Below are positions 6,408 to 61,347 of a stretch of 64,000 nucleotides of DNA, one piece after another (positions within the stretch are counted from its first letter, which is position 1; the number at the start of each line of letters is the position of its first letter). Under the pieces are notes generated by a model that had not been told where the DNA came from, searched no databases, and worked only from the letters and a program-made list of their open reading frames with translations. Source of the stretch: Candidatus Woesearchaeota archaeon (GTDB lineage Archaea; Nanobdellota; Nanobdellia; SCGC-AAA011-G17; GW2011-AR18); NCBI GenBank assembly GCA_018302765.1, contig JAGVZG010000001.1, positions 68,482 to 132,481 of the forward strand, in the 5' to 3' direction. Both the position numbers and the translations under genes were made by a program.

Positions 6408-7349
6408 TTGATTAATCGTGAATATTTTAATTATGATATGTTAAGACTATTCTGGTATTTTGTATGTGAGAGACAGAGCGTCTGGTATAAGCGTTTTTGT
6501 TGTAAATTAGATCCGCCATGGACCAAAGATATAATTTTACAAAAAGAGAGATTTACTAATGTTTATAGAGAATTAGATCCTGGAACGATTTACGCTATTA
6601 ATAATATACTTGAGGTTGATGCTCCAAAACAAGATAAAATTTTCAATACCATGTTCTATCGTTTGGTTGGTAGTTCCAATACTCACAAAGAAGTTGGATT
6701 TCAGAAACTAAGTTATTTTAATCCAGAGCATTTAGAGGCAAAGATGAAATATATTAGGGACGTTGAAAAGAAGTCTGTTTTTACTGCAGCTTATATGGTT
6801 AGTGGTTATTCCAAAATGGGTTCAAAAGATAAGGTAGAAAATGTTGTCAGGTTATTTACCAAACTGAGAAATTCTTTTGACTCTATTTATTCAGATATTC
6901 AAGGTTGCAAGAATTCTGAAGAGGTTTATAATGTTATTAGAGGTTTGTATGGTTTTGGCAATTTTTTATCATATCAGATATTGGTTGACTTGCTTTATCC
7001 TTTGAGAATATGTAAAGGCAAGAGTCTTTTACCTTATTCACATGATGACTGGGCAAGTGCAGGGCCTGGAGCAAAAATAGGAATCGAATTATTATTGAAA
7101 AAAGGCTTAAAGTTTAGCAATCTTGATGTAATGATGTGGTTAAGAAAAAATCAGTGTGAAGAATTTTTGAGGTTTGGCTTAAATTTTAATTATTTAACTG
7201 ATGACAAAGGTGATAAAATTGAGCTGTCTTTAGCAAACATACAGAACTGCCTTTGCGAATTTCATAAATACATTAAGATTAGGGATGGAACTGGAAGAGG
7301 AAGAAGAAAGTTTACTAGTGGTTTTTTTAATGTAAACAAAATATCCTAA
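6408..7349 (+). CDS. hypothetical protein (Trp/Tyr-rich N-terminus, no P-loop)
   Basis: 313-aa ORF. Its stop overlaps the convergent HIT gene. It is adjacent to the ThyX-like gene. Confidence 0.45.
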   Translation: MINREYFNYDMLRLFWYFVCERQSVWYKRFCCKLDPPWTKDIILQKERFTNVYRELDPGTIYAINNILEVDAPKQDKIFNTMFYRLVGSSNTHKEVGFQKLSYFNPEHLEAKMKYIRDVEKKSVFTAAYMVSGYSKMGSKDKVENVVRLFTKLRNSFDSIYSDIQGCKNSEEVYNVIRGLYGFGNFLSYQILVDLLYPLRICKGKSLLPYSHDDWASAGPGAKIGIELLLKKGLKFSNLDVMMWLRKNQCEEFLRFGLNFNYLTDDKGDKIELSLANIQNCLCEFHKYIKIRDGTGRGRRKFTSGFFNVNKIS

Positions 7350-14060: not shown

Positions 14061-15521
14061 TTATTTAACATTTCCTATCGGAATTAATTTTGTTACAGGT
14101 TTAGAAATTCCTGCTTTAGCTAATGCATCAATTACGTCATTTATTTCTTTGTATGCAGATCCTGCTTCTTCAGCTAATCCAGACATTGATCCAGACTTAA
14201 CATAAATCCCTCTTTGTTCCATTTCTTTTTGTAGTTGATCTCCTCTAAATTCTTTCTTGGCTTGATGCCTTGACATTGTTCTGCCAGAACCATGTGCTGT
14301 ACTTGAGAAAGTTTCATTGTCTGCTTTTTCTGTACCGACTAATAAATAACTTCCTGTTTCCATTGAGCCGCCAATTATTACTGGTGATCCTATATCTCTA
14401 TATAATTTTGAAACCTCTGAATTTCCTGGACCCTGACACAAAGTTGCGCCTTTTCTATGAACAACTAATTTTTTCTTTTTTCCATCAATTTTAAATTCTT
14501 GTAATCTTGCTAAATTATGAGCTACATCATAGACACAGTGCATCTCCATATCTTCTGCTTTAGTTTTGAAAATTTTTTCAAAACCTTCTCTTATTCTATG
14601 TAAAATTACTTGTCTATTTGCGAAAGCCATATTTGCTGCACAAGCCATTGCTTTGTAATAATCTTGTCCTTCCTTGCTTGAAAATGGAGCACATGATAAT
14701 TCTTTATCTAAAATTTTTATTTTTTCTCTTTGCATTACATTTTCAAAAATTTTTAAGTAGTCTGTAGCAACCTGATGACCAAAACCTCTAGAGCCACAGT
14801 GGAACATTATTACAATCTGATCTGGAAAAATTCCAAATTTCCTTGCTATATCTTTATCAATAATATTTTCTGGTTTTACATGCTGAATTTCTAGATAATG
14901 ATTACCTGAGCCAAGTGTTCCTAGTTGATCAATTCCTCTTTGTCTTGCTTTTTGTGAAACTTTACTTGAGTCAGCCCAGTCAATTCTTCCATTACTTTCT
15001 ATTCTTTCTAAGTCTTTTTGCCAACCATAATTATTTTCAACACACCATTTAACACCTTCTTCCATTACATTATTGAATTGCTGATTATTTATTTTTACAA
15101 AACCTTTGCAGCCTACACCAGATGGTACTGTTTGGAAGAAAGTATTCACTAGTTCTTTTAATTTAGGCTGAACGTCTTTAATTGTGAGATTTGTTGTAAC
15201 AAGCCTCATGCCACAATTTATATCAAAACCAATTCCTCCTGGAGAGATTACTCCTGTCTCAGCATCCATTGCAGCAACTCCACCAATTGGAAAACCATAC
15301 CCCCAATGCCCATCAGGCATGCATAGTGCAGCTTTTTGTATTCCAGGTAGGCATGCTACATTGGTTACTTGGTCAAACACTCCGGGATCCATTGTTTCTA
15401 ATAATTTTTTAGTTGCGTAAATCCTTGCAGGTACGTTCATACCTTGCTTGAAACTAGTTGGGATTTCCCAAACTGCTTCTTCTATCTGTTTTGTATCTTT
15501 TGGTATATTTGACATAATCAA
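14061..15521 (-). CDS. rtcB: RNA-splicing ligase RtcB
   Basis: 486 aa. Metal-binding motifs typical of RtcB are present, including DGHWGYGFPIGGV, HCGSRGFGH and NHYLE. Confidence 0.9.
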   Translation of the reverse strand: MIMSNIPKDTKQIEEAVWEIPTSFKQGMNVPARIYATKKLLETMDPGVFDQVTNVACLPGIQKAALCMPDGHWGYGFPIGGVAAMDAETGVISPGGIGFDINCGMRLVTTNLTIKDVQPKLKELVNTFFQTVPSGVGCKGFVKINNQQFNNVMEEGVKWCVENNYGWQKDLERIESNGRIDWADSSKVSQKARQRGIDQLGTLGSGNHYLEIQHVKPENIIDKDIARKFGIFPDQIVIMFHCGSRGFGHQVATDYLKIFENVMQREKIKILDKELSCAPFSSKEGQDYYKAMACAANMAFANRQVILHRIREGFEKIFKTKAEDMEMHCVYDVAHNLARLQEFKIDGKKKKLVVHRKGATLCQGPGNSEVSKLYRDIGSPVIIGGSMETGSYLLVGTEKADNETFSSTAHGSGRTMSRHQAKKEFRGDQLQKEMEQRGIYVKSGSMSGLAEEAGSAYKEINDVIDALAKAGISKPVTKLIPIGNVK

Positions 15522-15724: not shown

Positions 15725-17041
15725 ATGGCAGACGTAGTTGTTCCGGATGGATCTAGCAGAGATGACGATACAGATAAAATTATAACTATAGATATGAGTG
15801 CAATAGCAGATGATACTACGCCTTTACTTCAACAAGTTCATAATGAAAAAAGTGAACCAATGGCTATACCTAATTCTTTAAATTTAAATCTTATTCATGA
15901 TACTAAAATTCATGAGCAAATTGAAGATTTGCGTGTTAGAGACTGTCCTAGTTTAGAAAAGGTTTTGATAGGTTTGGGATATGATGATTCACACAATATT
16001 GTTAATGTATCTGTAGAAGACGCTGATCCTATTTATTATAAGGTTGGAACTGGTCTTGTATTTCAAGTAGACTTAGAAATTAATATTGGTACGACTACAA
16101 GTGGTTTTGTTGGAATTGATTATAGGACATGTGAAATTCCGAATTTGCATGTTTTGGCAAGAAATTCTTCTAATTTAAATCGTAATAATAAATTAGCGAG
16201 CTTGTATAAGAAATGGGTAGATTTTAGTTATAAACATAATTTTAGTAAAATTGTAGGAATGATGGACAGCGATGATGTCGTTAGAATATTCAGAATTTTT
16301 GATTATGATAATATTGAAAATGTTGAAATTCATAAAGTTGAATTAGTTAAAAATGAATATTATTTAGAGGCTTCTTGTTTTTATAGATCTTCTGTTGGGA
16401 GTATAAAATCAAGTTTATTTTGTGGAAAAATTCCAGCGAGTAAAATTTTATTAGACGTACGTTATTTGGAAGCAAATGTGATGAATTTGAAGAGAAAATC
16501 TTCAGCAGGAAAAATTATATCTATTGGCGCTTTTGGACTTGCTAGTTTGCTTGGCTTAGCTTATTTAGGATTGAGTACTCAGGATGTTTCTGGCTATAGT
16601 CCTGATTTATTGACTTCAAGTGGCGGTGATTTAGTAAGTCCTGCAGATATGACGCTTCATGAAGATCTTAAGTCTGAATATTTAGGTGACGCTAGCAATG
16701 GCGTTGCGGTTGATTTAGGAAGTAGTTCTAGTCATCCACCAGTTAGAATTTCTTTTATGGCACGCAGACCTAAAACTAAGGGCAGTTTATTTGTTAAGGT
16801 TGGTGGTGCTTCAGATGGAAGACATGTATTTAAGTATACTGCTGGAAAAGTAGGTTCTTATAGTACAAAAACAGGTAAGCCATCTTTTTATTCAGATGCA
16901 TTTAATGATTGGGTTGGCACAACTGCTGACAAATATGAAAAAGTTGATTCAGACGGTGTTTATAATAATAAAAATTGCAACAAACCACAGAAAGGTTTAA
17001 TGAAAGATATGCCTGCTTATGTTTGTGCGCAGCCAAAGTAA
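15725..17041 (+). CDS. membrane protein P1: acidic N-terminal domain, central TM helix, C-terminal FKY/CKPQ/AYVC domain (paralog family)
   Basis: TM segment ISIGAFGLASLLGLAYLGL. The C-terminus (VRISFMARRPKTKGSLFVKVGG...VFKY...VYNNKNCNKPQKGLMKDMPAYVCAQPK) is near-identical in key motifs to the 32512 and 33830 proteins. Confidence 0.55.
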   Translation: MADVVVPDGSSRDDDTDKIITIDMSAIADDTTPLLQQVHNEKSEPMAIPNSLNLNLIHDTKIHEQIEDLRVRDCPSLEKVLIGLGYDDSHNIVNVSVEDADPIYYKVGTGLVFQVDLEINIGTTTSGFVGIDYRTCEIPNLHVLARNSSNLNRNNKLASLYKKWVDFSYKHNFSKIVGMMDSDDVVRIFRIFDYDNIENVEIHKVELVKNEYYLEASCFYRSSVGSIKSSLFCGKIPASKILLDVRYLEANVMNLKRKSSAGKIISIGAFGLASLLGLAYLGLSTQDVSGYSPDLLTSSGGDLVSPADMTLHEDLKSEYLGDASNGVAVDLGSSSSHPPVRISFMARRPKTKGSLFVKVGGASDGRHVFKYTAGKVGSYSTKTGKPSFYSDAFNDWVGTTADKYEKVDSDGVYNNKNCNKPQKGLMKDMPAYVCAQPK

Positions 17042-17102: not shown

Positions 17103-18176
17103 ATGGCTGCAATAATTCCAGATGTTTTACCTTTATTGATTGGACAAGATTTATTAGTTAGATATAGTGACGCTGCTACATTGCCTCCTTTTTATGAGGG
17201 GTATGTTGCTAAACTTGTCGATTCTTCGTTAGGAGGTATAAGTAGGATAGCTGATTTAGACACTTTGACTGCAGATCCATGTGATTTAGACGGTATGTTT
17301 TTTAATAGTACTAATGACACTGCTGCCAGGATAGAATACTTTAGAATTTATAGTGGTCGTATTGATAGATTTGATGCAAGTTCTGGAAAATTGTTTTACA
17401 GAGCTGACGCTAGTCTAGGAGTAATTGGAAGTATTGGTGACAGCAGCAGTATATTTGAAGTTGGTAGAAGAGAATATTTATTTTGCTATTACAATGCTAG
17501 AAATGGTAAATGTTCTGTATTAAACGTTAATAATGATTTATGTAATGTGAGTTCTTATCTTCTTCCTTTTCTAAAAACATTTGTTCCTATTACGCATGTT
17601 GAATGCAGCAGTTCTCCTGTAGGAGTTATATATAATAAAGTATTTTTGGATAAGTTAGACATTCCTGAAGATTTTGTTAAAGGTATTCAGGGCGTTGTGC
17701 TTAAAGAAATAAAAAGAGAAAAGTCAAGTAATAGTTATATTTTATCAGGTACAGTTTATTATGCTAACCCAAATGCCAGAGGATTTTCGTTTGTTAAAGG
17801 TGCTTTTAGTAAATTTGATAATTTATTTTTAGAACATGGAACTAATTTTTTTGTAGATGGTGATTATTTGAAATCATGTGGCGTTGATTTAGGCCAAGAT
17901 AATGACTATTCTTATGGTAGTCTTGTTATCAGTAGAGGCACTAATCTTGATTGGAAATTGATTGGATTGGCTGGAGGTATTGCTTTAGGAGTTTTATCTG
18001 CAATTTGGATTGCTTATAATATTGTTCCTGGTTATTCTGCTGTAATGGCTCCAAGTGTTGATGCTGGCGCTGACTTAATTAAATCCTCTGCAGATAAAGA
18101 CAATAGTGGACCAAAATATAAGAAAAAAATTTCTAAACCTAAAAAACATAAAGCCAAGAAAAAATCATCTAAATAA
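17103..18176 (+). CDS. tail-anchored Cys-containing protein P2 with Lys-rich C-terminus
   Basis: 357 aa with several N-x-S/T sequons, a TM helix near the C-terminus (LIGLAGGIALGVLSAIWIAY) and the tail KKKISKPKKHKAKKKSSK. Its stop abuts the convergent archease stop. Confidence 0.5.
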   Translation: MAAIIPDVLPLLIGQDLLVRYSDAATLPPFYEGYVAKLVDSSLGGISRIADLDTLTADPCDLDGMFFNSTNDTAARIEYFRIYSGRIDRFDASSGKLFYRADASLGVIGSIGDSSSIFEVGRREYLFCYYNARNGKCSVLNVNNDLCNVSSYLLPFLKTFVPITHVECSSSPVGVIYNKVFLDKLDIPEDFVKGIQGVVLKEIKREKSSNSYILSGTVYYANPNARGFSFVKGAFSKFDNLFLEHGTNFFVDGDYLKSCGVDLGQDNDYSYGSLVISRGTNLDWKLIGLAGGIALGVLSAIWIAYNIVPGYSAVMAPSVDAGADLIKSSADKDNSGPKYKKKISKPKKHKAKKKSSK

Positions 18177-18611
18177 TTAAATGTCAACAAGCACTTTTGC
18201 TTTCCATTTGTCTTCTTCTTTTATTATTTCAAATTCATGCATTGTAATTGCCTTTGCATCGTCATGGAGATCCTGAGTTTCTCTGTTGATAAAATCACCT
18301 TCACATCTTGCAAATATTTCATATACTTTATTTTTGTGTGATATAACAACATCGAACTTGTTAAACAGCAAACCTTCTGTGTCTTTAACAAATATAAGTT
18401 CTGAAAGAAAATCATAAAGAAGATTTTCTATGGAATTTGTTTTTAGTGATATTTCATAATGCTCTTTAGTCTCCAATGTTTTTATGTCTACCATGATTTC
18501 TTCTAGAGCCAGAGCTGAATTTTCAAATAGGCTTTCTAATGTTTTTCCATAGGCTTCAAAAATTATATCTGCTGTGTGTGGTAGAAATTTATACTTCATC
18601 TTCTTTAACAT
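18177..18611 (-). CDS. archease (RtcB activator)
   Basis: 144 aa. The N-terminal FLPHTADIIFEAYG motif (HTAD) and a C-terminal ...KVLVDI match the archease family. Confidence 0.8.
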   Translation of the reverse strand: MLKKMKYKFLPHTADIIFEAYGKTLESLFENSALALEEIMVDIKTLETKEHYEISLKTNSIENLLYDFLSELIFVKDTEGLLFNKFDVVISHKNKVYEIFARCEGDFINRETQDLHDDAKAITMHEFEIIKEEDKWKAKVLVDI

Positions 18612-19053
18612 TCCTTCTTTCTACAACAATATTTATTTGCGTTGTCACACCTTCTTTATCTTCCCTTATTAAAATATTTCTGTCAGTTATTTGTTTTACA
18701 ATGTCTTTTATTGTGTAATCTGACTTCATTTTATCTCCAATCAAAACAGCATTTAGCATATATTCATTTGAAATTTGTTCTATTGTGATCTGCTTTATTG
18801 CTGATAATACAAATAACTCGTTATTTGCTAGTTCAAATAATCTTTTTAGAAATTGGAAAAGCAGATTTTTAAGATCCCTTGCTCTTATTATCAGTGTTTT
18901 TGTAATAGCTAGATCTATTTCTTCTGTGTTTATTACAATTTCAAATAATGACTTTGCTATTTTTGAGAACGATGCTTCTAAACTTGATGCTTTTTCTGAT
19001 ATTGTTATTTCTTCGACTTTGTGCTTTGACATAAGCTTTTTAATGCAATGCAC
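18589..19053 (-). CDS. archease-like paralog lacking the HTAD motif
   Basis: 154 aa. ASSLEASFSKIAKSLFEIV and ARDLKNLLFQFLKRLFELANNELFV align with archease core helices, but the metal-binding H-T-A-D is replaced by T-I-S-E. It overlaps the archease start by 23 nt. Confidence 0.45.
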   Translation of the reverse strand: MHCIKKLMSKHKVEEITISEKASSLEASFSKIAKSLFEIVINTEEIDLAITKTLIIRARDLKNLLFQFLKRLFELANNELFVLSAIKQITIEQISNEYMLNAVLIGDKMKSDYTIKDIVKQITDRNILIREDKEGVTTQINIVVERRNVKEDEV

Positions 19054-19144
19054 TTTATATAATTAACCTTGATAATGTTATTACTTTTAAGTAGCTAAAT
19101 ATAGGAAGATTTTTAAATAACTGAAGTTTTATTTTCATGTTAAT

Positions 19145-21649
19145 ATGGGAAAGGTTTTGAACTACGTAGGTAGAGGCATAAGAAATTTTGTTAGAAGGCA
19201 CAAGAAAGGGATTTCGCTAGCTGGAGCTTTAGTATTTGGCACTTCTGCTGCTTTAACTTGTGGCATTTATAAGTATATAACTACTCCTCCAAAGGATTTT
19301 GGAAGAGTAGGGCAATACTGGCATACTTACAAAGAACGTGAAAAATTAAAAAGTATAGAAAATAATGGTGCTTTAGAAAATAAGTTGAATATAAATAGAA
19401 AAGATAATGGTTCTTCAGGCGGGGCTTATCCTGATCCTAATATAATAGGCATTTGGCCGTTAACTCCGGATAACGGAATTAAGGTAGTTACTTCCAGTGG
19501 CAGAGAAATTGTTACTAGATACGCCACTTGGAACTATGCTTCTTTGGATGAAGTACCTAAAACTGTTATAAATTCTGTTTTAAGTGTAGAAGATGCAGAC
19601 TATCTTGAGCATAAAGGAGTAAACTGGAATTTAAGGAAGATTAAGGGTTTATTTTCTCCTATTCTTGGTGGAAGACGTGTTGGTGGAAGTGGCATAACAG
19701 AACAAGTATCTAAAATGATGTTTACTGATTTTGGTAAGATAAAGCCTAGGAGATCAGCAATGCAGAAACTTCGTGAGTTGCGTTATGCTTATTATTTAGA
19801 TAGTGTGCTTGGCAAGGAACAAGTATTAGAATTTTATTTGAATACAACGCCATTAGGAGACAGTTGTTATGGCGTAAAGTGCGCTGCTATGAATTACTTT
19901 GGTAAGGAACTGAGTAATTTAACTTTTCCTGAGAGTTTGTTTTTAGCAGCAATTATTAAAAATCCAGGAGCAAATCCAAAGAATAGTGGTTTTGAATTTC
20001 AAAAACGTAGATATGACATGCTCTGTGAGTCTTTGCACGATCTTGAAAGGATTACTGAAGATCAATATAAGGAGTGCAAATCTGCAGATGTGATTAAAAT
20101 GAAGCCTGGCTTAAAAAGAAGAAGATCTCCAATAAGTGATCCTAGTGTTTTTAGTGCTTTGGCTTATGAATTAGAAAATTATGATTTTGATTTAGTTGAC
20201 AATGTTGTTCATCAGCCAAATCCAGGTTTTGGGTTTACAGTTTATACTACAATAAATGATGAGATGCATGACGCTTTAGGCCAAGCATTTGTGGATGGAC
20301 TTAAACCAAATCAAGAACAGGTTCAACTTGGCGCTGGCGCTGTGCTGAATAGCGAGGCTCAAATAGTTGCTATTTTAGGCAGGACAGACTACAGTACGCT
20401 AAGCGGAGCTTGGAGTTTTAGGAATCTTGCTGTAGCTGGGAGACGTGCTGCTGCTTCTTCAATAAAGCCTTTTGTTTATGGTTCTTGCTATGACCAAGAG
20501 AATTCAAATATTACATGCAAACCAGGCAATGTTATTTCTGATTCTAAAAAAGGATTGAGAAATCCTCCTCATAATTTTGATGGAAAGTATGAAAGAAGAA
20601 TGTCTTTAGCAGAAGCTTTAACTTCATCGAATAATGTAATAGCTTATAAAGTGTGTCGTAGAATTGGACTTAGAAATGTACTTCCAGTTATAGAAGCTGT
20701 TGGATTTGATGTTGCTGAATATGAAACAGTATTTAGGGACTGCAGAAATACTGCTTTAGGCTCAGGGCGTGTAACTCCTTTAGAACTTGCTGCTGCTTAT
20801 CGTGTTTTTGTAAAAGACGATGATGGTAATTTTTCTGCAGAATATAGAAAGCCAACAATTATTGATAGGGTTGATTTATGGTCTTTTAATTACAAAGTAA
20901 ATCTATCTGCAACAAAAGTTTTTCGTAGTGCTAACACAGTTGAATCTGTTAGAATTAGCTTAGACAGGCTTGGAAATAAAATTGTTGGCAGTAAATATGA
21001 AGCAGATATAGGTTTTAAGACTGGCACTCCAAACCCCACTACACATTGGTATTTAGGTGGAGTTCTTGACCTTGATAGTGTTTCTTATTCTATAGGTTTT
21101 CTGGCTGTGGCTAAACCTAAAGTTGTACCTTCAAAAAAAAATCCTAAGGTTTTAGTAAAAGTTTATCCTAATAAGTTGTATGCTAGTGGCGTTCTTGGTC
21201 CTGTGGTAAAAAGTTTTGTTGACGGAGTTGCTCCTAGAAAAGAAATGAAGCCTATTGATCTATATGTTCCTGCTGTTGCTAGCTTGGACAGCGTATGCAG
21301 TAATTATAATTTAGCAAGCGTTGAGCTAACTTTGCCTAGTGCTGATAATCACGATCTTGAGACACTGGGAGATATTTTAAGTGCTTGCTCTTCTTATTTT
21401 TCTGCTAATAATGAAAATGAAAAGTATGGCTTATTTTCTTACGCTGCAGGCCGTGTCTGGGAGACTTTGTACAGTAATGAAGCAACGTCTTCTCCAGGCA
21501 GCAAAACTGCTTTGCTTTACTATAGCAGTGCAATTAATTCTTATAAAACAGCTGTTCAGGAAGACAGTTTTAGTAGTTTAGCTGAAGAAAGAATTAGAGA
21601 TTTAAAGATTAAAAGAGAACAGGAAGCTAATAGAATTCATGCAGATTAA
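19145..21649 (+). CDS. class A penicillin-binding protein (bifunctional GT51 peptidoglycan glycosyltransferase / D,D-transpeptidase), N-terminal TM anchor
   Basis: GT51 motifs EDADYLEHKG, GGSGITEQ, QKLRE and VLEFYLNTTPLG...YGVKCAAMNYFGK...LTFPESLFLAAIIKNP. Transpeptidase motifs SSIKP (SxxK), SSN (SxN) and KTGT appear with canonical spacing. A TM segment lies near the N-terminus. Confidence 0.8.
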   Translation: MGKVLNYVGRGIRNFVRRHKKGISLAGALVFGTSAALTCGIYKYITTPPKDFGRVGQYWHTYKEREKLKSIENNGALENKLNINRKDNGSSGGAYPDPNIIGIWPLTPDNGIKVVTSSGREIVTRYATWNYASLDEVPKTVINSVLSVEDADYLEHKGVNWNLRKIKGLFSPILGGRRVGGSGITEQVSKMMFTDFGKIKPRRSAMQKLRELRYAYYLDSVLGKEQVLEFYLNTTPLGDSCYGVKCAAMNYFGKELSNLTFPESLFLAAIIKNPGANPKNSGFEFQKRRYDMLCESLHDLERITEDQYKECKSADVIKMKPGLKRRRSPISDPSVFSALAYELENYDFDLVDNVVHQPNPGFGFTVYTTINDEMHDALGQAFVDGLKPNQEQVQLGAGAVLNSEAQIVAILGRTDYSTLSGAWSFRNLAVAGRRAAASSIKPFVYGSCYDQENSNITCKPGNVISDSKKGLRNPPHNFDGKYERRMSLAEALTSSNNVIAYKVCRRIGLRNVLPVIEAVGFDVAEYETVFRDCRNTALGSGRVTPLELAAAYRVFVKDDDGNFSAEYRKPTIIDRVDLWSFNYKVNLSATKVFRSANTVESVRISLDRLGNKIVGSKYEADIGFKTGTPNPTTHWYLGGVLDLDSVSYSIGFLAVAKPKVVPSKKNPKVLVKVYPNKLYASGVLGPVVKSFVDGVAPRKEMKPIDLYVPAVASLDSVCSNYNLASVELTLPSADNHDLETLGDILSACSSYFSANNENEKYGLFSYAAGRVWETLYSNEATSSPGSKTALLYYSSAINSYKTAVQEDSFSSLAEERIRDLKIKREQEANRIHAD

Positions 21650-21802: not shown

Positions 21803-23083
21803 ATGGCTAAGGCAAAACCACATTTAAACGTTGTATTTGTAGGTCACGTAGACCACGGAAAGAGCACTACAGTTGGGAGATTAATGTATGACGCAGGTGT
21901 TATTCCTGAGCAGGATATGAGAAAACTTAAGGAAATGGCTCAGCAGTTAGGAAAGGTTGGTTTTGAATTTGCTTTTGTTATGGATAATCTTAAAGAAGAA
22001 AGAGAGAGAGGAGTTACTATTGATTTAAGCCATAAAAAATTTGACACTCCTAAATTCGAATGTACAATTATAGATGCTCCAGGGCACAGAGATTTCATTA
22101 AAAATATGATTACAGGCGCTAGCCAAGCAGACGTTGCTTTCTTAGTTGTGGCTGCACCTGACGGAGTAATGGCACAAACTAAAGAACATGTTTTCTTGTT
22201 AAAGACTTTTGGTGTAAATCAGATTGCTATTGTTGTTAACAAGATGGACGTAGTAAAATATGACCAAGCTAGATTTAATAAAGTAAAGGAAGATGTAAGT
22301 GCTTTGTTAAAGTCTGTTGGATACAAGCCAGATCAAGTTAAGTTTATTCCAGCTGCTTCTTTCTTAGGAGATAACGTAGTGAAGAAGAGTACAAATATGT
22401 CTTGGTATACTGGATCAACTATCTTAGAACAAATAGATAATTTCAGTCCTCCTGAAAAACCAACAAACTTGCCGCTAAGATTGCCTTTGCAAGATGTTTA
22501 TAATATTACAGGCATTGGCGTTGTTCCAGTTGGTAGAGTTGAAACTGGAGTAATGAAAGTTGGCGATAAAGTGATTATAGTTCCTGGAAGGGAAGGAACT
22601 GGTATAAAAGGAGAAGTTAAAACTATTGAGATGCATCACGAGCAAATACAAGAGGCTGTTCCAGGTGATAATATAGGATTTTCAGTCAGAGGAGTTAATA
22701 AAAAAGATATTGCTAGAGGAGATGTTGTAGGACATGAAAATAATTCACCAATAGTTGTAAGTGAGTTTACAGCACAGATAGTTGTTTTAAATCATCCTAC
22801 AGTATTGACAGTTGGATACACTCCTGTATTTCATATACACACTGCACAAGTTGCTTGCCAATTTGTTAAGTTGTTAGCAAAACTTGATCCTGCAACAGGA
22901 CAAGTAATGCAAGAAAATCCTGACATGCTAAAGAACGGAGATGCAGCTAGGGTTGTTATAAAACCTACAAAACCTTTAGTAATTGAGAAACAGAAAGATA
23001 TACCTCAAATGAGTAGGTTTGCAGTTAGAGATGCAGGTCAAACTGTTGCTGCAGGCATGTGTATTGATTATGTGAAAAAGTAA
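21803..23083 (+). CDS. tuf: translation elongation factor 1-alpha (aEF-1A)
   Basis: 426 aa. [14 protein letters not shown] and the FKYAWV-like segment ([22 protein letters not shown]) are diagnostic of the archaeal/eukaryotic EF-1alpha form. Confidence 0.95.
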
Positions 23084-23185: not shown

Positions 23186-23497
23186 ATGCAAAAAGCAAGA
23201 ATAAAATTGGCAAGCGCTGAAATTGACTTACTCAATGAAGTAGTTAATTCTATAGTCGATATAGCTAAAAAAACTAATACTGTTATTAGAGGACCAATTC
23301 CTTTGCCAACTAAGAAATTAAAAATAACCACTAGAAAGTGCCCTTGCGGCGACGGCAGGGCTAGTTTTGATAGGTTTGAAATGAGAGTTCATAAAAGACT
23401 AATTGATTTAGGCGTTGATGAGAGAGCATTAAGATTAGTTATGAGAGTTCCTTTACCAAAAGGGGTGAACATAGAAATAAACCTTTTGGAGAAGTAA
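23186..23497 (+). CDS. rps10: 30S ribosomal protein S10
   Basis: 103 aa. The conserved tuf-rps10 order of archaea is present, and [11 protein letters not shown] matches the S10 loop. Confidence 0.85.
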
Positions 23498-23956
23498 ATG
23501 ACTAGAGAATTAGAATTAATGTTGGGCGTTGACCTTGCTGGTGAAAATGCACCAAATAGATTAGCTATTTTTCTAAATGATTTTGTTAAAGTATTACATT
23601 CTCCCAATTTAAGAGTTTTTCAATTTCATCCTTTGCCTTCTAAGAAAGGAGATAACTATAGAAGATTAATATCCTTAGGTTCTCATGAAGTTCCTCTCGA
23701 TGTTTTTAGTCAAAGTGACTGGGGTCCAAAGGTTTCTTTGTATGATGCTGTAAGAAAGGATAGATTTTTTTCTTTTGAGTTAAATTATGGTAGGATTGTT
23801 CCTGTTGAAATTCTTCCAGACAATTTACTTCCAGGTAACTATCTTTTGATGGAATTGCATAATGGAAATAGTCATAAATCTTATCATATTCTATATTTAG
23901 ATGAAGGATTACAAGAGTTTGCTTTTTCTGGCGGACCAAAGTATAAGAAACAGTAA
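23498..23956 (+). CDS. hypothetical protein
   Basis: 152-aa ORF that starts directly at the S10 stop. Confidence 0.4.
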   Translation: MTRELELMLGVDLAGENAPNRLAIFLNDFVKVLHSPNLRVFQFHPLPSKKGDNYRRLISLGSHEVPLDVFSQSDWGPKVSLYDAVRKDRFFSFELNYGRIVPVEILPDNLLPGNYLLMELHNGNSHKSYHILYLDEGLQEFAFSGGPKYKKQ

Positions 23957-26156: not shown

Positions 26157-26702
26157 ATGAGAAAATTAATTTTAGTATTGTTTTTTATCTTAGCTGTTTC
26201 TTCAGTTTTTGCTGGCTGTTCTGGACAAAGTAATACATCTTTGCCTATGGGTCATAGTGTTCAGGATGTTGGAAATGACAAAGGAGATGTAGCTCCTGAT
26301 TTCAGTGTTAAACTTATTGATGGTACAGATTTTAAATTAAGTGATTACAAAGGTGAGAAACCAGTTTTACTTTATTTCTGGGCTACTTGGTGCCCTTATT
26401 GCAAGGAAGATTTTTCTGTTGTGAAAAATGTTTATCCTAAATATAAAGACGGTGTTGAGTTTTTAGCAATGGATTTGGATTCTAGTGAAGACATTGAATC
26501 TATTAAGGAATATGTTAATAAAATGGGTTTGCATGATATTAAGTTTACAACTGCTCAATCAAGTGTATTAGTTGATTATGGAGTTCATTCTACTACAACT
26601 AAATACGCTATTGGCAGAAATGGTCTTATTTTATGGAAGGGTAGTGGGGCAGTAGATGAAGAAACTTGGGAGACAATATTTACAGGTTTGAAGAATTCTT
26701 AG
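26157..26702 (+). CDS. TlpA/ResA-like thioredoxin-fold lipoprotein
   Basis: Signal peptide followed by Cys (VFAGCSG) and a WCPYC thioredoxin active site (FWATWCPYCKED). Confidence 0.7.
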   Translation: MRKLILVLFFILAVSSVFAGCSGQSNTSLPMGHSVQDVGNDKGDVAPDFSVKLIDGTDFKLSDYKGEKPVLLYFWATWCPYCKEDFSVVKNVYPKYKDGVEFLAMDLDSSEDIESIKEYVNKMGLHDIKFTTAQSSVLVDYGVHSTTTKYAIGRNGLILWKGSGAVDEETWETIFTGLKNS

Positions 26703-27003: not shown

Positions 27004-27894
27004 ATGGTTTTGATAAGAAAAAAATCAATAGATAGCAAGGAGTATTATTATTTGGAACATTCATTTAGAGAAGCAGGTTCTGTCAAAAAAAAAGAACTTT
27101 ACTTAGGAACTGAGATTCCCAAAAATATTGAAGAAATCAAGATAAAATTTACTGAAGAAATATATAAAGAAAGATGGAGTAAAACATTAGAAGAGATAAA
27201 AAAAGAGTATAATAAAGAAAATAGATCAATACCAGAATCGTTAACTGAAAAAGAAATAGAATCTTTTATGATTAAATTTACTTATAATACTCAAAGGATA
27301 GAAGGTTCAAGGTTAACATTAAGAGAAACTGCAAATTTATTAGAAAAAGGAATAACGCCCAAAGAAAAACCTGTTAGAGATGTTAGAGAAGCAGAAGCAC
27401 ATAAAAAAGTATTCTATGAAGTGTTAAAATTCAAAAAAGACTTGTCATTAGATTTAATTCTTCATTGGCATAGAATGTTGTTTTTAGAAACAAAAAAAGA
27501 TATGGCTGGAATACTAAGAAAACACCAGGTTGCAATATCTGGGAGTAAGTTTATACCTTCCTCTCCTGTAGAAGTTTATTTATTATTAAGGGAATTCTTT
27601 AAATGGTATGAAAAAAATAAAAGTAAGATAAATCCTGTAGAATTAGCAGCATGCGTTCATTTAAAATTTGTTACAATACACCCATTTGGAGATGGGAATG
27701 GGAGAATATCAAGACTGATGATGAATTTTGTTCTCAAAAAAAATAAATATCCAATGTTAAATATAAAATATGAAGGAAGAAATAGTTATTATAATGCGCT
27801 TGAAAGATCGCAAGTAAAGAAAAATGAAGGAATATTTATACAATGGTTTATAAAAACTTATATAAAAGAAAATAAAAGATATTTGAAGAAATAA
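27004..27894 (+). CDS. fic: Fic-family protein (AMPylase-type) with putative inhibitory helix
   Basis: Fic motif HPFGDGNGRISR (HPFx[DE]GNGR). An upstream TQRIEG matches the [ST]xxxE[GN] auto-inhibition motif. Confidence 0.8.
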   Translation: MVLIRKKSIDSKEYYYLEHSFREAGSVKKKELYLGTEIPKNIEEIKIKFTEEIYKERWSKTLEEIKKEYNKENRSIPESLTEKEIESFMIKFTYNTQRIEGSRLTLRETANLLEKGITPKEKPVRDVREAEAHKKVFYEVLKFKKDLSLDLILHWHRMLFLETKKDMAGILRKHQVAISGSKFIPSSPVEVYLLLREFFKWYEKNKSKINPVELAACVHLKFVTIHPFGDGNGRISRLMMNFVLKKNKYPMLNIKYEGRNSYYNALERSQVKKNEGIFIQWFIKTYIKENKRYLKK

Positions 27895-28078: not shown

Positions 28079-28665
28079 GCGAGCTTCTAAATTGAGAAAT
28101 TATTTAATTAAGCTCGCGACCACTCTTTAGAGTGGAGTGAATGGTGTGTAGAAACATTATTCTAGAAATAGTTTAGGAATAATGCTGGTAAAGTGATGCA
28201 TCCCGAAGGAGGCAACGATGAGCATCTACTAGCAAAATACTCATGCACATTCAATCGCATGGAGCACATGGCATTTTGAATGGTGCACTAAGTATTGGTA
28301 TAATATATTCAGGCAAGACTACATTAAAAATCTTTGCCTGATTGCAATAAGCGAAGCTGCAAAGAAGAATAAGATAGAAATTATGGAAATTGAAGTGGAT
28401 GTAGATCACATTCATCTTATTGCTTCAATTCCACTAACAATGGCGCCTAGTAAAGCACTAAACTTAATCAAAGGATTTAGTGCTTACTTATTGTTTAAGA
28501 TTGTACCAAATCTCAGGCTTAGATATAGAAAAGGACATTTATGGAGCAAGGGAAAATTTGCAGCAAGTGTTGGGCATATAACTTTAGAAAATGCGAAAAA
28601 ATATCTCGAGGAGCATCACGCCAAATCAATTAAAGGAATCTCCACCCTTTAGGGTGTGAGAGGAT
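28079..28665 (+). mobile_element. IS200-like (tnpA-only IS200/IS605 family) element with subterminal hairpins
   Basis: Left hairpins GCGAGCTT/AAGCTCGC (28079-28117) and CCACTC-TTTA-GAGTGG (28120-28135). A similar CACCC-TTTA-GGGTG hairpin sits at the tnpA stop (~28645-28660). An HUH/Y1 transposase ORF lies in between. Confidence 0.55.
28233..28652 (+). pseudogene. tnpA: IS200/IS605 family transposase TnpA (HUH Y1), N-terminally degenerate or frameshifted
   Basis: The C-terminal two-thirds is conserved (EIEVDVDHIHLI HUH motif; GHLWSKGKFAASVG; catalytic Tyr region KKYLEEH). The in-frame upstream part has no ATG, and an ATG is found only in another frame. Confidence 0.55.
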
Positions 28666-32511: not shown

Positions 32512-33774
32512 ATGTCTATTAAAAATTGGACAATAGGTGGCCTTGGTGCACTTGTTTTAGGACTTGCTGCTTCTTCTTTAACTTGTAAGCCTTGCAATGA
32601 TTTAGCAAGAAAAGTTAGTGGTAAAGAACTTCCTTTATTTGGTCGTGTTAATGGAAATACGCAAAACAAAAATCCTGCTCCTTTGCCTAAGCCTCATGTT
32701 GCAGATGACGAACCTGCTGCTGACGAAGGTAGTAGTGATGATAGTTCTGAAAAAACTACAGAATCTGCAGAAGTAGAATCAAAAAGTTCTGGTTCATCAG
32801 ACGCAGATTCTTCTTCTAAAAAACCTAGTTTTGTTAAAGTTGGCAATGTTGGAAATAAAGACGTATTCAAATATGACTTAGGTAAAGTTAGGGATGGAGA
32901 GGGTTCATTTTTGTACGCTGTTAGATTTAATAAATGGGACGACAGTTCTGAAGGAGACACCTATAAAAAAGTTGGTCAAAATGATGTTTACAATAATAAA
33001 AATTGTAAGCCACAGAAAAATTTTATGAAAGGTATGCCTGCTTATGTTTGTGTTCTTCCTAATAATGGGGAAAGTGGAGACACTCCTGGAGATGCTGGTG
33101 ATCGTGCTCCAAATAATGTTGAAGTGAGGTCAGATTCTGGTGCAGTTGCAACAACAGATCCTACATCTACTCGAACTTTGCACGTAGCAATAGAACGTCC
33201 AAGTTCTCCAGATCTTGGTTCAGATTCTGGCGTAGGCAGTTCTGGAACAATTGAATTAGTTGTTAATCCTTATGCTAATGCTACTGAGACAGCAACTCCT
33301 GCTGAGAGTGGCGACTCTGAAGATGATAGTTCTGGCGATACTTACGATGAAGATGCTGCTGGCACTTCTGGTCGTCGTGATTATACTGACCCTTTTGGCG
33401 TTGTTTTGTCTGGCGACCCAGTTGCAGCACAATATGGCACTGCAATAATAAGTGGTTTTAATGAAGCTTATCAAGATAAATATAGGACTAAGAACAGCGG
33501 TAAATGCTTAAGTGTAAATATTGGTTTAGAATACGCTGTTGGAGCAAAAGGCGAACTTGTTAGTATAAGGGGATATTTTTGTGGGGACTTAGAATCATGC
33601 GCTGGAAGAGGAAAACTTTATTTGGATCAACCTCATGATTCTAGTTTAGATGAAAATTTTACTTTTGGAAGAGAGCTGATTAAGGTAATAAGAGTAGAGA
33701 ATTCTAAAAGGCCACTTGTTTCTGTCAAAAGAGGAAACTACGTAGGTTCTATAATTGAATTTGGTTGTGAATGA
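32512..33774 (+). CDS. secreted protein P3: signal/TM N-terminus, acidic Ser/Asp/Glu-rich low-complexity linkers, FKY/CKPQ/AYVC domain (paralog family)
   Basis: N-terminal hydrophobic segment GGLGALVLGLAASSL. The KKPSFVKVGNVG...VFKY...VYNNKNCKPQKNFMKGMPAYVCVLP domain matches the C-terminus of the 15725 protein. Confidence 0.55.
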   Translation: MSIKNWTIGGLGALVLGLAASSLTCKPCNDLARKVSGKELPLFGRVNGNTQNKNPAPLPKPHVADDEPAADEGSSDDSSEKTTESAEVESKSSGSSDADSSSKKPSFVKVGNVGNKDVFKYDLGKVRDGEGSFLYAVRFNKWDDSSEGDTYKKVGQNDVYNNKNCKPQKNFMKGMPAYVCVLPNNGESGDTPGDAGDRAPNNVEVRSDSGAVATTDPTSTRTLHVAIERPSSPDLGSDSGVGSSGTIELVVNPYANATETATPAESGDSEDDSSGDTYDEDAAGTSGRRDYTDPFGVVLSGDPVAAQYGTAIISGFNEAYQDKYRTKNSGKCLSVNIGLEYAVGAKGELVSIRGYFCGDLESCAGRGKLYLDQPHDSSLDENFTFGRELIKVIRVENSKRPLVSVKRGNYVGSIIEFGCE

Positions 33775-33829: not shown

Positions 33830-36061
33830 ATGTCTTTAAGATCACTACTATATGCAGCGCTTTTTTTATTTATTGGCAGTGCTGAAACTAACGTTGATGC
33901 TGCTAGAAAACCTAGGTCAGAGAGAACAGCGTTTTCTAAAATAAAAGAAAAGGGTAATGTACATGTTTTTAAGTACAGAGTATCTAGTGGTGAAAAAGAC
34001 AGTGATATTGCTTTGAAATTTGGGATTTGGGACAGAGGCCAAGGCAGTTTGTATGAAACAGTTACTTCTGCAAGCGTTACTGGCGACCCTTCTTGTAAAC
34101 CTCAACTTCTTAAAAAAGAAAACATTGCTTATGTTTGCGCTAATAGAAAACTACGTGTAGTGCCTAATGATTTCAAAGGGCCTTCTATTGAATTTATAGA
34201 TTTGTTTGATACTCCTTATTGGGGTTCTTTGTTGAAGGTTACAAAGAGTTTTGGTCCTGATGGATTTCCAGTTCACACTGTTGATTTAAATATAACTGCA
34301 AGAGAAAAAATAAATGTTAATTCTAGGAGAAGTGCTTATGCTTATAGAGGTTCACATGATTTGGAAAGTATAACTATTTTTGCTTTTGATAGAGATGCTG
34401 AGAGAGATCTTACTTTATGTCCAGAAAAAGTCTATGAGTTTAAGTATGACGAGCTAGTTACTTTGCCTAATTGCATTACTGATGGTTCTTATGGTATTTT
34501 GGCAGCTTTAGAACATTTTGCTAAGTTTGAGTATGGCGTTTTAGATAAATATACAGAAACTGTTCCGCCAGGATTAGCAGGTTTTAAGGCTGGAAGATTA
34601 GTTAAACCATCTGCAGAACTTGCACCAGCTCCGATAATATTTATAACTCCTCCACCTTCTCCAACACCTTTAGTTCCAGTTCCAGTTTCAACAATACCAG
34701 CAGCTCCTAGTGGTTCAAGTGCTTCATCTTCTGCTACTACAACAGTTCATTCTCCACCTATTAGTTTCAAAGCTAGAAGACCAGGACCTGGTTCAGCTGT
34801 ACCTTCAGTTGGTTCAGGAATTTCAACAATACCAGCAGCTCCTAGTGGTTCAAGTGCTTCATCTTCTGCTACTACAACAGTTCCTTCTCCACCTATTAGT
34901 TTCAAAGCTAGAAGACCAGGACCTGGTTCAGCTGTACCTTCAGTTCCAGCTTCGGTTTCTGTTTTTAGCGGTTGGACTGATACCGCTTTAGGTTCAAGCA
35001 CTGAATCTTGTAGTGCCTGCGCATCAACAAACTCAGTACAATTTGTAGGAGGAGTTAGAGTTCGTGGCTTGTTAAGTAACGTTGAATTTAATAGCAACAC
35101 AGGTTTAGAATCTTCTTATGGTTTTATTGGTGGAGATTTACGTTTAGTTTTGGGTGGGGGTGTTGGGAATAATTATTTAGCAGTTTCTGCAGCTGCTGGA
35201 TTAAGAAAAGTTGGCGTAGATGGATTATTAAGTAAAAGGCTTTTGGACTTTGGTGACAATAGTAATACAACTCATGTAGAAGTTGGACCGTCTGGAAGAT
35301 TACATTTAGCTAAAGGAAATAAATTGGAAGTTGATGCTGTACTTAATCCTGCTTTTTTATATAGTAGAGAGCGTGTAAATAATTTTGGCGGAAATAGTTT
35401 CTTAGAGGAAGGTAAAGGGCTTAGGATAAATGGCAGTGTAGCTTTACCTCGTCTCTTATTTAATGGAGAAAAATTTGCTTGGGGTTTATACGGTGATTTT
35501 GATTTAGAGGCATTGAGACTAAAGCAAACTAATCTGAATAGTGGACAGGAAACTTTGTTTGGCTGGAGAACTAGAGGATCTTATGGCGGAGGCAGTTCTT
35601 TTAGTTTTGATGCTTTAGGAACAGACGTTAATATTGGTGTTGGATTTAGGACGCACCATAATTATAATTTAGCTTTAAGAAGTAATTTATCTCCTAATGA
35701 TTTAAAGTGGTTACAATACAGACAACAGAGAGGTTTTATACTTGATTTAAGTGATCTTACTGTAGGTGATTCTAGAGGGTATACTTTAGACCCAGCTTTA
35801 ACTATTGAAAATGATAGGTTTTATTTAAGACTTGAAGGACAAGTATCTATTTATGGAAATGTAAGGAGAGGGGGATTTTGCTTAAATACTGGTGGCAAAA
35901 CCAGAGGTGGTTTATACATTGGTAGTGGGTTTTGTTACAGTGATATTACTCAAGAATCTGAAGCAGGCAGTGCCAGAAGCAGGGGAGGATCAGTTAATAT
36001 TACTTTAGGAAGTCCCAGTATTAAATTAAATCCAAGAATTGATCAGGCAGACATAAGATAA
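33830..36061 (+). CDS. secreted protein P4: signal peptide, divergent FKY/CKPQ/AYVC domain, Pro/Ser-rich region with tandem ISFKARRP-containing repeat, Gly/aromatic-rich beta-strand-like C-terminal domain
   Basis: Signal peptide LLYAALFLFIGSA. Motifs VFKY...SCKPQ...IAYVCA are present. SPPISFKARRPGPGSAVPSV appears twice. The C-terminal ~350 aa shows alternating hydrophobic/polar residues rich in G, N, R, Y and F. Confidence 0.55.
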   Translation: MSLRSLLYAALFLFIGSAETNVDAARKPRSERTAFSKIKEKGNVHVFKYRVSSGEKDSDIALKFGIWDRGQGSLYETVTSASVTGDPSCKPQLLKKENIAYVCANRKLRVVPNDFKGPSIEFIDLFDTPYWGSLLKVTKSFGPDGFPVHTVDLNITAREKINVNSRRSAYAYRGSHDLESITIFAFDRDAERDLTLCPEKVYEFKYDELVTLPNCITDGSYGILAALEHFAKFEYGVLDKYTETVPPGLAGFKAGRLVKPSAELAPAPIIFITPPPSPTPLVPVPVSTIPAAPSGSSASSSATTTVHSPPISFKARRPGPGSAVPSVGSGISTIPAAPSGSSASSSATTTVPSPPISFKARRPGPGSAVPSVPASVSVFSGWTDTALGSSTESCSACASTNSVQFVGGVRVRGLLSNVEFNSNTGLESSYGFIGGDLRLVLGGGVGNNYLAVSAAAGLRKVGVDGLLSKRLLDFGDNSNTTHVEVGPSGRLHLAKGNKLEVDAVLNPAFLYSRERVNNFGGNSFLEEGKGLRINGSVALPRLLFNGEKFAWGLYGDFDLEALRLKQTNLNSGQETLFGWRTRGSYGGGSSFSFDALGTDVNIGVGFRTHHNYNLALRSNLSPNDLKWLQYRQQRGFILDLSDLTVGDSRGYTLDPALTIENDRFYLRLEGQVSIYGNVRRGGFCLNTGGKTRGGLYIGSGFCYSDITQESEAGSARSRGGSVNITLGSPSIKLNPRIDQADIR
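34688..34945 (+). repeat. near-perfect tandem duplication: two 123-bp units separated by 12 bp (period 135 bp) inside the P4 coding sequence
   Basis: Units 34688-34810 and 34823-34945 differ at about one base (cattct vs ccttct). Each encodes STIPAAPSGSSASSSATTTV[H/P]SPPISFKARRPGPGSAVPSV. Confidence 0.85.
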
Positions 36062-37127: not shown

Positions 37128-37871
37128 ATGTTATACTTAATTGGACTAGGATTGGGAGATGAGAAGGATTTAACTCTTAATTCTCTGGACGTTATTAAAA
37201 ACTGCAGTTTTGTTTACTTAGAAAATTATACTTCTTTTTTAGTATTTGATGTTAAGAAATTAGAATCTTTAATTGGCAAAAATGTTATTTTAGCAGAAAG
37301 GGAGTTTGTTGAAACCAGTGATGAAATGATTAACAATGCTTTAAATTCTGATGTTGCATTTTTAGTAAAAGGTGATGTTTTTTCCGCAACAACGCATGTG
37401 GACTTGTTTTTGAGAGCAGTTCATCATGGCATTAGGTGTAGTGTTTTGCATAATTCTTCCGTGCTTACAGCTGTAAGTGATACTGGATTAAGCTTATATA
37501 AATTTGGAAGAGTTGTTTCTATACCTTTTGATTATAATAATGTTTACAGTTCTTATGAAACATTTTTAAGCAACGGAGATTCACATACACTTTTCTTACT
37601 AGACTTAAAACCCAGTGAGAATAAATTCATGAACTTTAAAGACGGATTTAATTATTTATTAAATAAAAGTGGAGAAAGAAATGACAGTAGAATTGGCCTT
37701 GACACTATGTGTGTTGTTTGCGCAGCATTAGGAACTGATAAGGCTGTTATAAAATATGGCAAGATCTGTGACTTATTAAATTTTAATATTGATGCTTACC
37801 CGCAGTGCATTATAATTCCTGGCAAGACGCATTTTGTTGAAGAAGAAGTTCTTAATTTATTTAGACTATAA
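37128..37871 (+). CDS. dph5: diphthine synthase
   Basis: MLYLIGLGLGDEKDLT at the N-terminus, and a tetrapyrrole-methylase fold pattern characteristic of Dph5; 247 aa. Confidence 0.8.
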   Translation: MLYLIGLGLGDEKDLTLNSLDVIKNCSFVYLENYTSFLVFDVKKLESLIGKNVILAEREFVETSDEMINNALNSDVAFLVKGDVFSATTHVDLFLRAVHHGIRCSVLHNSSVLTAVSDTGLSLYKFGRVVSIPFDYNNVYSSYETFLSNGDSHTLFLLDLKPSENKFMNFKDGFNYLLNKSGERNDSRIGLDTMCVVCAALGTDKAVIKYGKICDLLNFNIDAYPQCIIIPGKTHFVEEEVLNLFRL

Positions 37872-45804: not shown

Positions 45805-45878
45805 TTAAACTCTAACTTCAATTTTTCTTCTATTGTCTAGGTCTTTAAGAAGCTCTTGTCCTAATTTGGATTTTTTAT
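45805..45878. repeat. 74-bp direct repeat, copy 2 of 2 (native 3' end of the ATPase gene)
   Basis: Identical to 45244-45317. Confidence 0.85.
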
Positions 45879-61230: not shown

Positions 61231-61347
61231 GATTTTGTATTGCAATTGTTTATTGAATTGAGTTTTCGCTCTAACTACCAAGTGGTTGCTATGACTGGCT
61301 ATAGAAATCTTTTTATATTTAAGCATTTACAGTATTTCGAGGGTTTT

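Follow-up and report, generated by a model that had tools for sequence, protein, structure and literature searches.

A complete class-A penicillin-binding protein encoded at a conserved archaeal locus in Woesearchaeota

A class-A penicillin-binding protein gene and its product

The stretch analysed here, 64,000 nucleotides of contig JAGVZG010000001.1 from a Candidatus Woesearchaeota archaeon, a small DPANN archaeon of groundwater (the window), contains at 19145..21649 (+) an open reading frame (ORF) of 834 aa with an ATG start. By its domains, motifs, membrane anchor and fold, it encodes a complete bifunctional class-A penicillin-binding protein (PBP). That Archaea lack murein is a textbook distinction at the level of the domain, and class-A PBPs are otherwise bacterial. 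The gene is laid out as follows, with the limits of its parts taken from hydropathy, Pfam profiles and an alignment of the PBP family described below, and with model confidence given as the predicted local distance difference test (pLDDT).

19110..19119 (+): TATA-like element TTTTTAAATA, read from the sequence, ~30 nt 5' of the PBP ATG
19145..21649 (+): whole PBP gene, 834 aa
19145..19279 (+): short basic, predicted cytoplasmic tail (RRHKKG) and single transmembrane anchor at aa 23-41, from hydropathy
19280..19525 (+): clade-specific juxtamembrane region with GQYW (aa 56-59) and (F/Y)PDP...WPLT..N (aa 95-110), from the family alignment
19526..20020 (+): GT51 domain (PF00912) with E149 (motif 1), GGSGITEQ (motif 2), pyrophosphate-binding K208 and E211 (motif 3)
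20021..20353 (+): interdomain linker, low pLDDT at 320-360, 27% identity within the family
20354..21124 (+): acyl-serine transpeptidase domain (PF00905) with S438-x-x-K441, S495-x-N497 and K625-T-G-T628, pLDDT 85-93
21125..21646 (+): clade-specific helical C-terminal domain of ~170 aa with conserved C718 and C748, from the family alignment

Both catalytic domains scored far above chance in Pfam. PF00912 (Transgly) matched aa 128-292 at 2.3e-38 (131.9 bits against a cut-off of 27), and PF00905 (Transpeptidase) matched aa 404-632 at 1.1e-10 (41.7 bits against a cut-off of 22.1). The glycosyltransferase motifs lie at aa 149-158 (EDADYLEHKG), 180-187 (GGSGITEQ), 207-211 (QKLRE) and 227-238 (VLEFYLNTTPLG), and those of the transpeptidase, SSIKP, SSN and KTGT, at aa 438-442, 495-497 and 625-628, with canonical spacing. 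A hydropathy scan found one hydrophobic segment, aa 23-41 (Kyte-Doolittle 1.73), preceded by the basic RRHKKG. By the positive-inside rule, an established basis for transmembrane topology, the protein is predicted to be of type II, N-in and C-out, with the kind of anchor that is classical in class-A PBPs. A first-pass annotation made from the letters alone had proposed an 834-aa class-A PBP with these motifs and a single anchor and had named the same two Pfam profiles as its check, and both parts were borne out.

Searches beyond Pfam led to the same class. The top NCBIfam models were all class-A PBPs, with TIGR02074 (PBP_1a_fam) the best at 225.5 bits against a trusted cut-off of 508.75, followed by TIGR02073 (PBP1C; 160.8 against 494.2) and TIGR02071 (PBP1B; 116.2 against 717.75). 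Because the protein falls below the trusted cut-off in every case, it stands outside the curated bacterial subfamilies, as a separate clade. A sequence search of the PDB matched exclusively class-A PBPs and monofunctional GT51 enzymes. An AlphaFold2 model built from an alignment with 35 bacterial PBPs had a mean pLDDT of 70.7, with 80-93 for both catalytic domains. When this model was submitted to Foldseek, the top 27 matches were full-length class-A PBPs (E 5e-26 to 1e-19), with full-length S. aureus PBP2, E. coli PBP1b and the PBP1a of A. baumannii and H. influenzae the best (E 5e-26 to 5e-21), so that the predicted structure agrees with the assignment made earlier from motifs. Thus, the GT51 profile, the GT51 catalytic residues, the SxxK/SxN/KTG set, the N-terminal anchor and the overall fold that characterize a class-A PBP were all found in this protein.

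The comparison with bacterial enzymes revealed both likeness and difference. The order of anchor, GT51, linker and transpeptidase is that of bacterial PBP1A-family proteins (TIGR02074; S. aureus PBP2, 2olv and 3dwk; E. coli PBP1b, 3vma and 5hlb; A. baumannii PBP1a, 3udf), and, as in bacterial class-A PBPs, all GT51 motifs and the SxxK/SxN/KTG set are present at normal spacing. In contrast, the archaeal protein is only 24-34% identical to any of its bacterial counterparts and has neither an OB/ODD (PF17092) nor a UB2H insertion. It has features of its own in the juxtamembrane region with GQYW and PDP..WPLT and in the Cys-containing helical C-terminal domain of ~170 aa, whose helices are predicted at low confidence; profile searches with these two regions gave no Pfam or PDB match. 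The gene also adjoins translation and tRNA-splicing genes, unlike those of bacterial PBPs.

The pair C718-C748 probably forms a disulfide, as judged from its conservation in a domain predicted to be extracytoplasmic. A DsbB gene (53924-54520, -) and a membrane-anchored thioredoxin-fold gene (26157-26702) are encoded in the window, and together with the conserved pair they are consistent with extracytoplasmic oxidative folding. Upstream of the PBP ATG no Shine-Dalgarno sequence was seen when the sequence was read, in contrast to aEF-1alpha, which is preceded by a GAGGGGG element. With the TATA-like element, this suggests a putative archaeal promoter and a leaderless or short-leader mRNA; the region is AT-rich, and the match may be due to chance.

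An archaeal family at a shared position

Apart from the query itself, a word-indexed search with the PBP recovered bacterial PBPs only, at up to 34% identity over partial lengths. When such a search was made with the family profile, bacterial PBPs dominated the matches, and one restricted to the clade-specific N- and C-terminal regions gave no match. An exhaustive HMMER search over 1.84 billion cluster representatives revealed a family that the word-indexed search had missed. Its members P0121-P0132 scored 478-200 bits at 34-39% identity with near full-length alignment, followed by P0133 (178 bits) and P0134 (164 bits), and two lower-ranked matches, P0145 and P0154, also carry the N-terminal region of the family; ordinary bacterial PBPs scored no higher than 157 bits. 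A neighbour-joining tree was built from 79 sequences over 638 columns, and the 17 family representatives in it (clusters at 50% identity) were monophyletic in 60 of 60 bootstraps against 62 others, which were bacterial-type PBP matches from both searches.

All attributable members come from metagenome-assembled genomes (MAGs) of Woesearchaeota or Nanoarchaeota. Two are named 'penicillin-binding protein [Candidatus Woesearchaeota archaeon]' (MBI2148769.1, MBS3168618.1), one 'transglycosylase domain-containing protein [Candidatus Woesearchaeota archaeon]' (MBS3161415.1) and one 'hypothetical protein QT09_C0016G0008 [archaeon GW2011_AR18]' (KHO53168.1), and HIH25876.1 belongs to a Nanoarchaeota MAG. 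When the family profile was run against the GTDB species representatives, it matched three Woesearchaeota MAG contigs (JACPCE010000017, CAYJSR010000038, CAYNBR010000025) and, weakly, a single bacterial sequence; a scan of JGI metagenomes contributed four more divergent PBP loci. Family sequences have been public since 2015, some of them auto-annotated as PBPs, and the gene is thus known to databases.

The gene is set among archaeal genes, as the first-pass annotation had observed; its neighbours, including a Dph5-like gene, were confirmed where it had placed them.

14061-15521 (-): RtcB
18177-18611 and 18589-19053 (-): two tandem archease genes (PF01951) with a 23-nt overlap, divergent from the PBP gene
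21803-23083 (+): aEF-1alpha, 153 nt downstream of the PBP gene
23186-23497 (+): S10
37128-37871: diphthine-synthase-like TP_methylase

Further away in the window lie genes for enolase, ThyX, a class I aminoacyl-tRNA synthetase (W/Y family) and a PIN-ATPase. The arrangement recurs in the relatives. The PBP gene lies immediately downstream of the divergent archease pair in all related loci (L007, L008, L009, L014-L017), and this position is shared by at least five other lineages. On contigs that reach far enough, RtcB is found upstream, and in L014 enolase, ThyX and SIMPL are found further upstream. In L007, a Woesearchaeota MAG locus, aEF-1alpha (95% identical) and S10 (89%) follow directly downstream of the PBP gene. 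The other flanks of the related loci are also archaeal, with TrmB regulators and an ATP-dependent DNA ligase as examples.

These data also bear on the integrity of the contig, which the first-pass annotation had wanted checked for a chimeric assembly. By exact-sequence look-up, this 834-aa protein is encoded in identical form on at least 23 contigs, which stem from different samples and were made with different assemblers, each time with the same neighbours on both sides. Examples are ENA ERZ28564302 (ANAN16-1 scaffold_254, 132 kb), ERZ27254845 (k141, 97 kb), ERZ909578 (a k127 assembly of a groundwater metagenome), and JGI 3300025311 and 3300025152. The window has ~30% G+C throughout, and the PBP region is not an outlier; with a G+C content at third codon positions (GC3) of 0.217 and a codon-usage likelihood of -0.893 under the window's codon table, the gene lies inside the spread of values shown by the 46 other genes. 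Bacterial DNA wrongly joined to archaeal DNA, or a contaminated bin, is therefore practically negligible as an explanation: beyond the prior concern that class-A PBPs are otherwise bacterial we found nothing in its favour, and a chimera is excluded by junctions that are identical in IDBA-type scaffolds, MEGAHIT k141 and k127 assemblies and JGI assemblies, by native composition and codon usage, and by divergent orthologues that occupy this position in further Woesearchaeota MAGs and in metagenome contigs. One short JGI contig (L013, 725-1806) carries a 99%-identical variant with an apparent frameshift at about codons 57-62, which may reflect an error of sequencing or assembly, or else variation within the population.

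We also considered a recent horizontal transfer or a mobile island and rejected it, given the native composition of the gene and its position beside core genes, kept in several lineages. No mobile-element genes flank the PBP gene; the sole transposase remnant, Y1_Tnp, lies ~7 kb downstream. This Y1 (IS200/IS605-type) fragment lies at about 28383-28652 of the window (L001 19239-19508) and is 83-89 aa long depending on the assembly.

Monophyly and the position shared by the relatives point to a single old transfer followed by vertical inheritance. The simplest reading of the tree and synteny is one bacterial-to-archaeal transfer, fixed at the archease/aEF-1alpha position and then passed on by descent. 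Of the horizontal acquisition suggested by the first-pass annotation, the bacterial origin stands, now as that of an old, vertically inherited gene and not of an isolated recent acquisition. The closest proteins outside the family (at most 157 bits, ~30% identity) are of mixed or unlabelled taxonomy (Paceibacterota, Gemmatimonadota, Blastocatellia, Burkholderiales), and a donor lineage was not identified among these nearest sequences.

The PBP is the fastest-evolving annotated gene of the syntenic set. Between the window and the relatives, identity is 95% for aEF-1alpha, 89% for S10, 83-87% for RtcB, 48-75% for the archeases, 61% for enolase, 58% for ThyX, 43% for the class I aminoacyl-tRNA synthetase (W/Y family) and 32-34% for the PBP; an unannotated ORF at 23498-23956 stands at 30%. 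Divergence is uneven along the protein. Mean pairwise identity among 13 core members is 47% in GT51, 37% in the transpeptidase, 29-30% in the membrane and juxtamembrane parts, 27% in the linker and 21% in the C-terminal domain. Across these 13 members 41 positions are invariant, including E149, Q187, K208, E211, S438, K441, S495, N497 and K625-T-G-T628, and the residues named here are also invariant in the alignment with 35 bacterial PBPs (36 sequences). Purifying selection thus acts on both active sites. A degenerate pseudo-enzyme or mere binding module was rejected on the same evidence, as the catalytic residues are invariant despite regional identities of 21-47%. The PBP, with its catalytic residues intact, is an old, conserved and probably active member of the lineage's envelope toolkit.

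Proposed function and alternatives

Covalent beta-lactam binding, lipid II polymerization and cross-linking are the putative activities of the PBP. In the mechanism that we favour by a little, the PBP would act within the membrane of the archaeon itself, polymerizing a lipid II-like precursor and so producing a murein-like glycan-peptide. One N-terminal helix would insert the protein in the archaeal cytoplasmic membrane, with the remainder outside the cell. The GT51 domain would then lie on the outer membrane face, where E149 and E211 would polymerize a polyprenyl-pyrophosphate-linked disaccharide, either lipid II or a close analogue. The acyl-serine domain would form an acyl-enzyme with a D-Ala-D-Ala-type stem peptide via S438 and subsequently cross-link or trim. 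The precursor would be made by the archaeal cell or taken over with host lipids, and there would be no direct action on the sacculus of a host. We infer topology, enzymatic activity and substrate here by analogy with bacterial class-A PBPs.

In GT51 enzymes, as known from the structures of PBP1b and S. aureus PBP2, donor and acceptor are both lipid-anchored in the enzyme's own membrane, and the serine domain of class-A PBPs (structures 2olv, 3vma, 3udf) is acylated by a stem peptide that ends in D-Ala-D-Ala. Because GT51 substrates are lipid-anchored beside the enzyme, the substrate is expected in the archaeon's own membrane. GT51 is the best-conserved part of the family, and a real polymerase activity is therefore favoured. 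A stronger version, in which this Woesearchaeota clade assembles a true murein-like layer of glycan and D-Ala peptide, or a patch of it at the septum or contact site, from lipid II that is endogenous or imported with bacterial host lipids, seems doubtful to us.

Several observations weigh against polymerization in the archaeon's own membrane. The PBP reaches the trusted cut-off of none of the NCBIfam PBP subfamilies, and its substrate specificity may have shifted. No homologue of MurA-G, MraY, Ddl, MurJ or FtsW/RodA turned up in the window (64 kb), in the 10 kb that precede it or around the related PBP loci, which is weak evidence, as the search covers ~74 kb of this genome, a small fraction. 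The rapid divergence of the PBP sequence resembles that of host-interaction surface proteins. Finally, the peptidoglycan enzymes reported from DPANN genomes are degradative, not synthetic (PMC8204110, PMC9723730, PMC11537232).

The searched region upstream of the window also holds a gene with PF03417 (AAT, acyl-CoA:6-aminopenicillanic-acid acyltransferase / peptidase C45 family; L011 8598-9620), near genes for glycogen synthase, phosphoglucomutase and GalT. The resemblance of its name to that of the PBP is probably a coincidence.

The main alternative, which we consider less likely, is a host-directed enzyme. The archaeon would be a wall-less episymbiont or predator, and the surface-anchored PBP would work on the peptidoglycan of a bacterial partner at the contact zone. 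The transpeptidase could act as a DD-carboxypeptidase or endopeptidase, or tether or remodel host stem peptides, and GT51 could bind glycan strands or extend host lipid II. This would fit the GH23 lytic transglycosylase giant proteins, LD-carboxypeptidases and muramoyl-tetrapeptide carboxypeptidase reported in Woesearchaeota and Pacearchaeota, where peptidoglycan enzymes have been read as serving interaction with, or scavenging from, bacteria (PMC8204110, PMC9723730, PMC11537232). It would also fit the 32% identity of the PBP against 43-95% for its annotated neighbours, a divergence of the kind seen in proteins at an interface, the N- and C-terminal extracellular modules that are specific to the clade and matched no homologue, and the failure to see mur genes nearby in the regions searched. 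However, GT51 needs a lipid-linked substrate in the membrane in which it is anchored, and host lipid II would lie behind the wall or outer membrane of the host. Furthermore, GT51 is the most conserved part and both of its glutamates are invariant, which argues for polymerase activity and not mere binding, and features of secretion or toxin delivery are not present.

Woesearchaeota and Pacearchaeota encode GH23 giant proteins of the murein-like lytic transglycosylase kind (PMC8204110, Castelle et al. 2021; PMC9723730, Vigneron et al. 2022). Like the PBP, they are bacterial-type, extracellular and related to peptidoglycan, and they occur in the same DPANN lineages. They differ in being degradative (SLT/GH23, up to 3,000 aa), with another fold family and chemistry, whereas the PBP is of the synthase type (GT51 and DD-transpeptidase).

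A re-purposed enzyme is improbable. GT51 would act on an archaeal non-murein substrate, for instance a dolichol- or polyprenyl-pyrophosphate-linked GlcNAc glycan akin to N-glycosylation intermediates, and the serine domain would be a peptidase or acyltransferase on surface proteins. Scores under all the curated subfamily cut-offs and a long-branched, clade-specific family with extra domains would be compatible with such a shift, and Archaea are reported to have lipid-pyrophosphate-chitobiose-type intermediates made by the MurG-like Agl24. Against this, the residues that in characterized PBPs contact the pyrophosphate-MurNAc and the D-Ala-D-Ala donor are all kept (K208, E211, SxxK, SxN, KTGT). 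We know of no precedent for a GT51 enzyme with a non-muramyl substrate in vivo.

Pseudomurein, found in Methanobacteriales and Methanopyrales, is the only established murein-like wall of Archaea, and its biosynthesis includes genes related to those of bacterial Mur ligases and MraY. For transglycosylase and transpeptidase orthologues in these archaea there is little or no evidence, and cross-linking has been postulated to occur via transglutaminases (PMC10117817). The Woesearchaeota PBP, in contrast, brings both a GT51 and a transpeptidase domain, of which the pseudomurein makers show little or no sign. A CAZy-based survey of 2012 found the minimal GT28, GT51 and GH set in 0 of 101 archaeal genomes and reported no GT51 gene in any of them, and it identified GT51 as the best single predictor of peptidoglycan, with a correlation of 0.96 (PMC3541169). 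In full-text literature searches, no paper on a class-A PBP or GT51 enzyme in DPANN came up.

A conserved and catalytically intact PBP clade in DPANN, with its vertical inheritance, makes the rule of murein-free Archaea directly testable. A murein-like layer, if real, would amount to the first case of peptidoglycan synthesis among Archaea, and sensitivity to beta-lactams and moenomycin would be expected. Either outcome bears on the interaction of Woesearchaeota with bacterial partners, for which the repertoire known so far consists solely of wall-degrading enzymes. If active, the PBP would also provide a very divergent scaffold (at most 34% identity to bacterial PBPs) for structure-function and inhibitor studies.

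Other genes in the window and related loci

The first-pass annotation had grouped three genes of the window, at 15725, 32512 and 33830, into a secreted paralog family. Two of these, 15725-17041 (+) and 32512-33774 (+), indeed share ~85 aa at ~50% identity (aa 356-437 of the former with aa 102-183 of the latter), but 33830-36061 (+) has no BLASTP relation to either. The functional link that had been suggested between these genes and the PBP found no support, as two of the genes are insertions specific to the lineage and do not occur in syntenic loci which keep the PBP. Between RtcB and archease, 15725-17041 (+) and 17103-18176 (+) are both missing in the syntenic L014 and L016, so these intervening genes, which encode membrane or surface proteins, were inserted in this lineage specifically.

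RtcB itself varies among the loci. In related loci it has an in-frame insertion of ~500 aa at residue ~102, which scores as an intein (Pfam Intein_splicing, 6e-15) in the RtcB gene of L014 (5834-8803, -). RtcB of L016 and L007 showed a similar gap in the tblastn alignment, and the RtcB of the window is intein-free.

At 4723-6333 (+) lies an unusually long ThyX-like protein of 536 aa, whose Thy1 domain is confined to the C-terminal part. The gene that follows, 6408-7349 (+), has a 5-hmdU DNA kinase helical domain (PF18723, 4.9e-57), which is part of a phage-type pathway of thymidine hypermodification. The pair is kept in L011 and L012, other assemblies of the organism, and a homologue of the ThyX-like protein is also found in L014. 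It hints at modified DNA bases in this Woesearchaeota archaeon.

The aspartyl-tRNA synthetase at 57376-59139 (-) has a GAD insertion domain, a mark of the bacterial type, and together with DsbB it appears to be a further bacterial-type gene in this archaeal genome. The window also encodes a 607-aa fusion of a PIN domain, a T2SSE-type ATPase and a KH domain (45805-47628, -), a Fic-domain protein (27004-27894, +) and a secreted protein with five fibronectin type III repeats (61240-62739, +).

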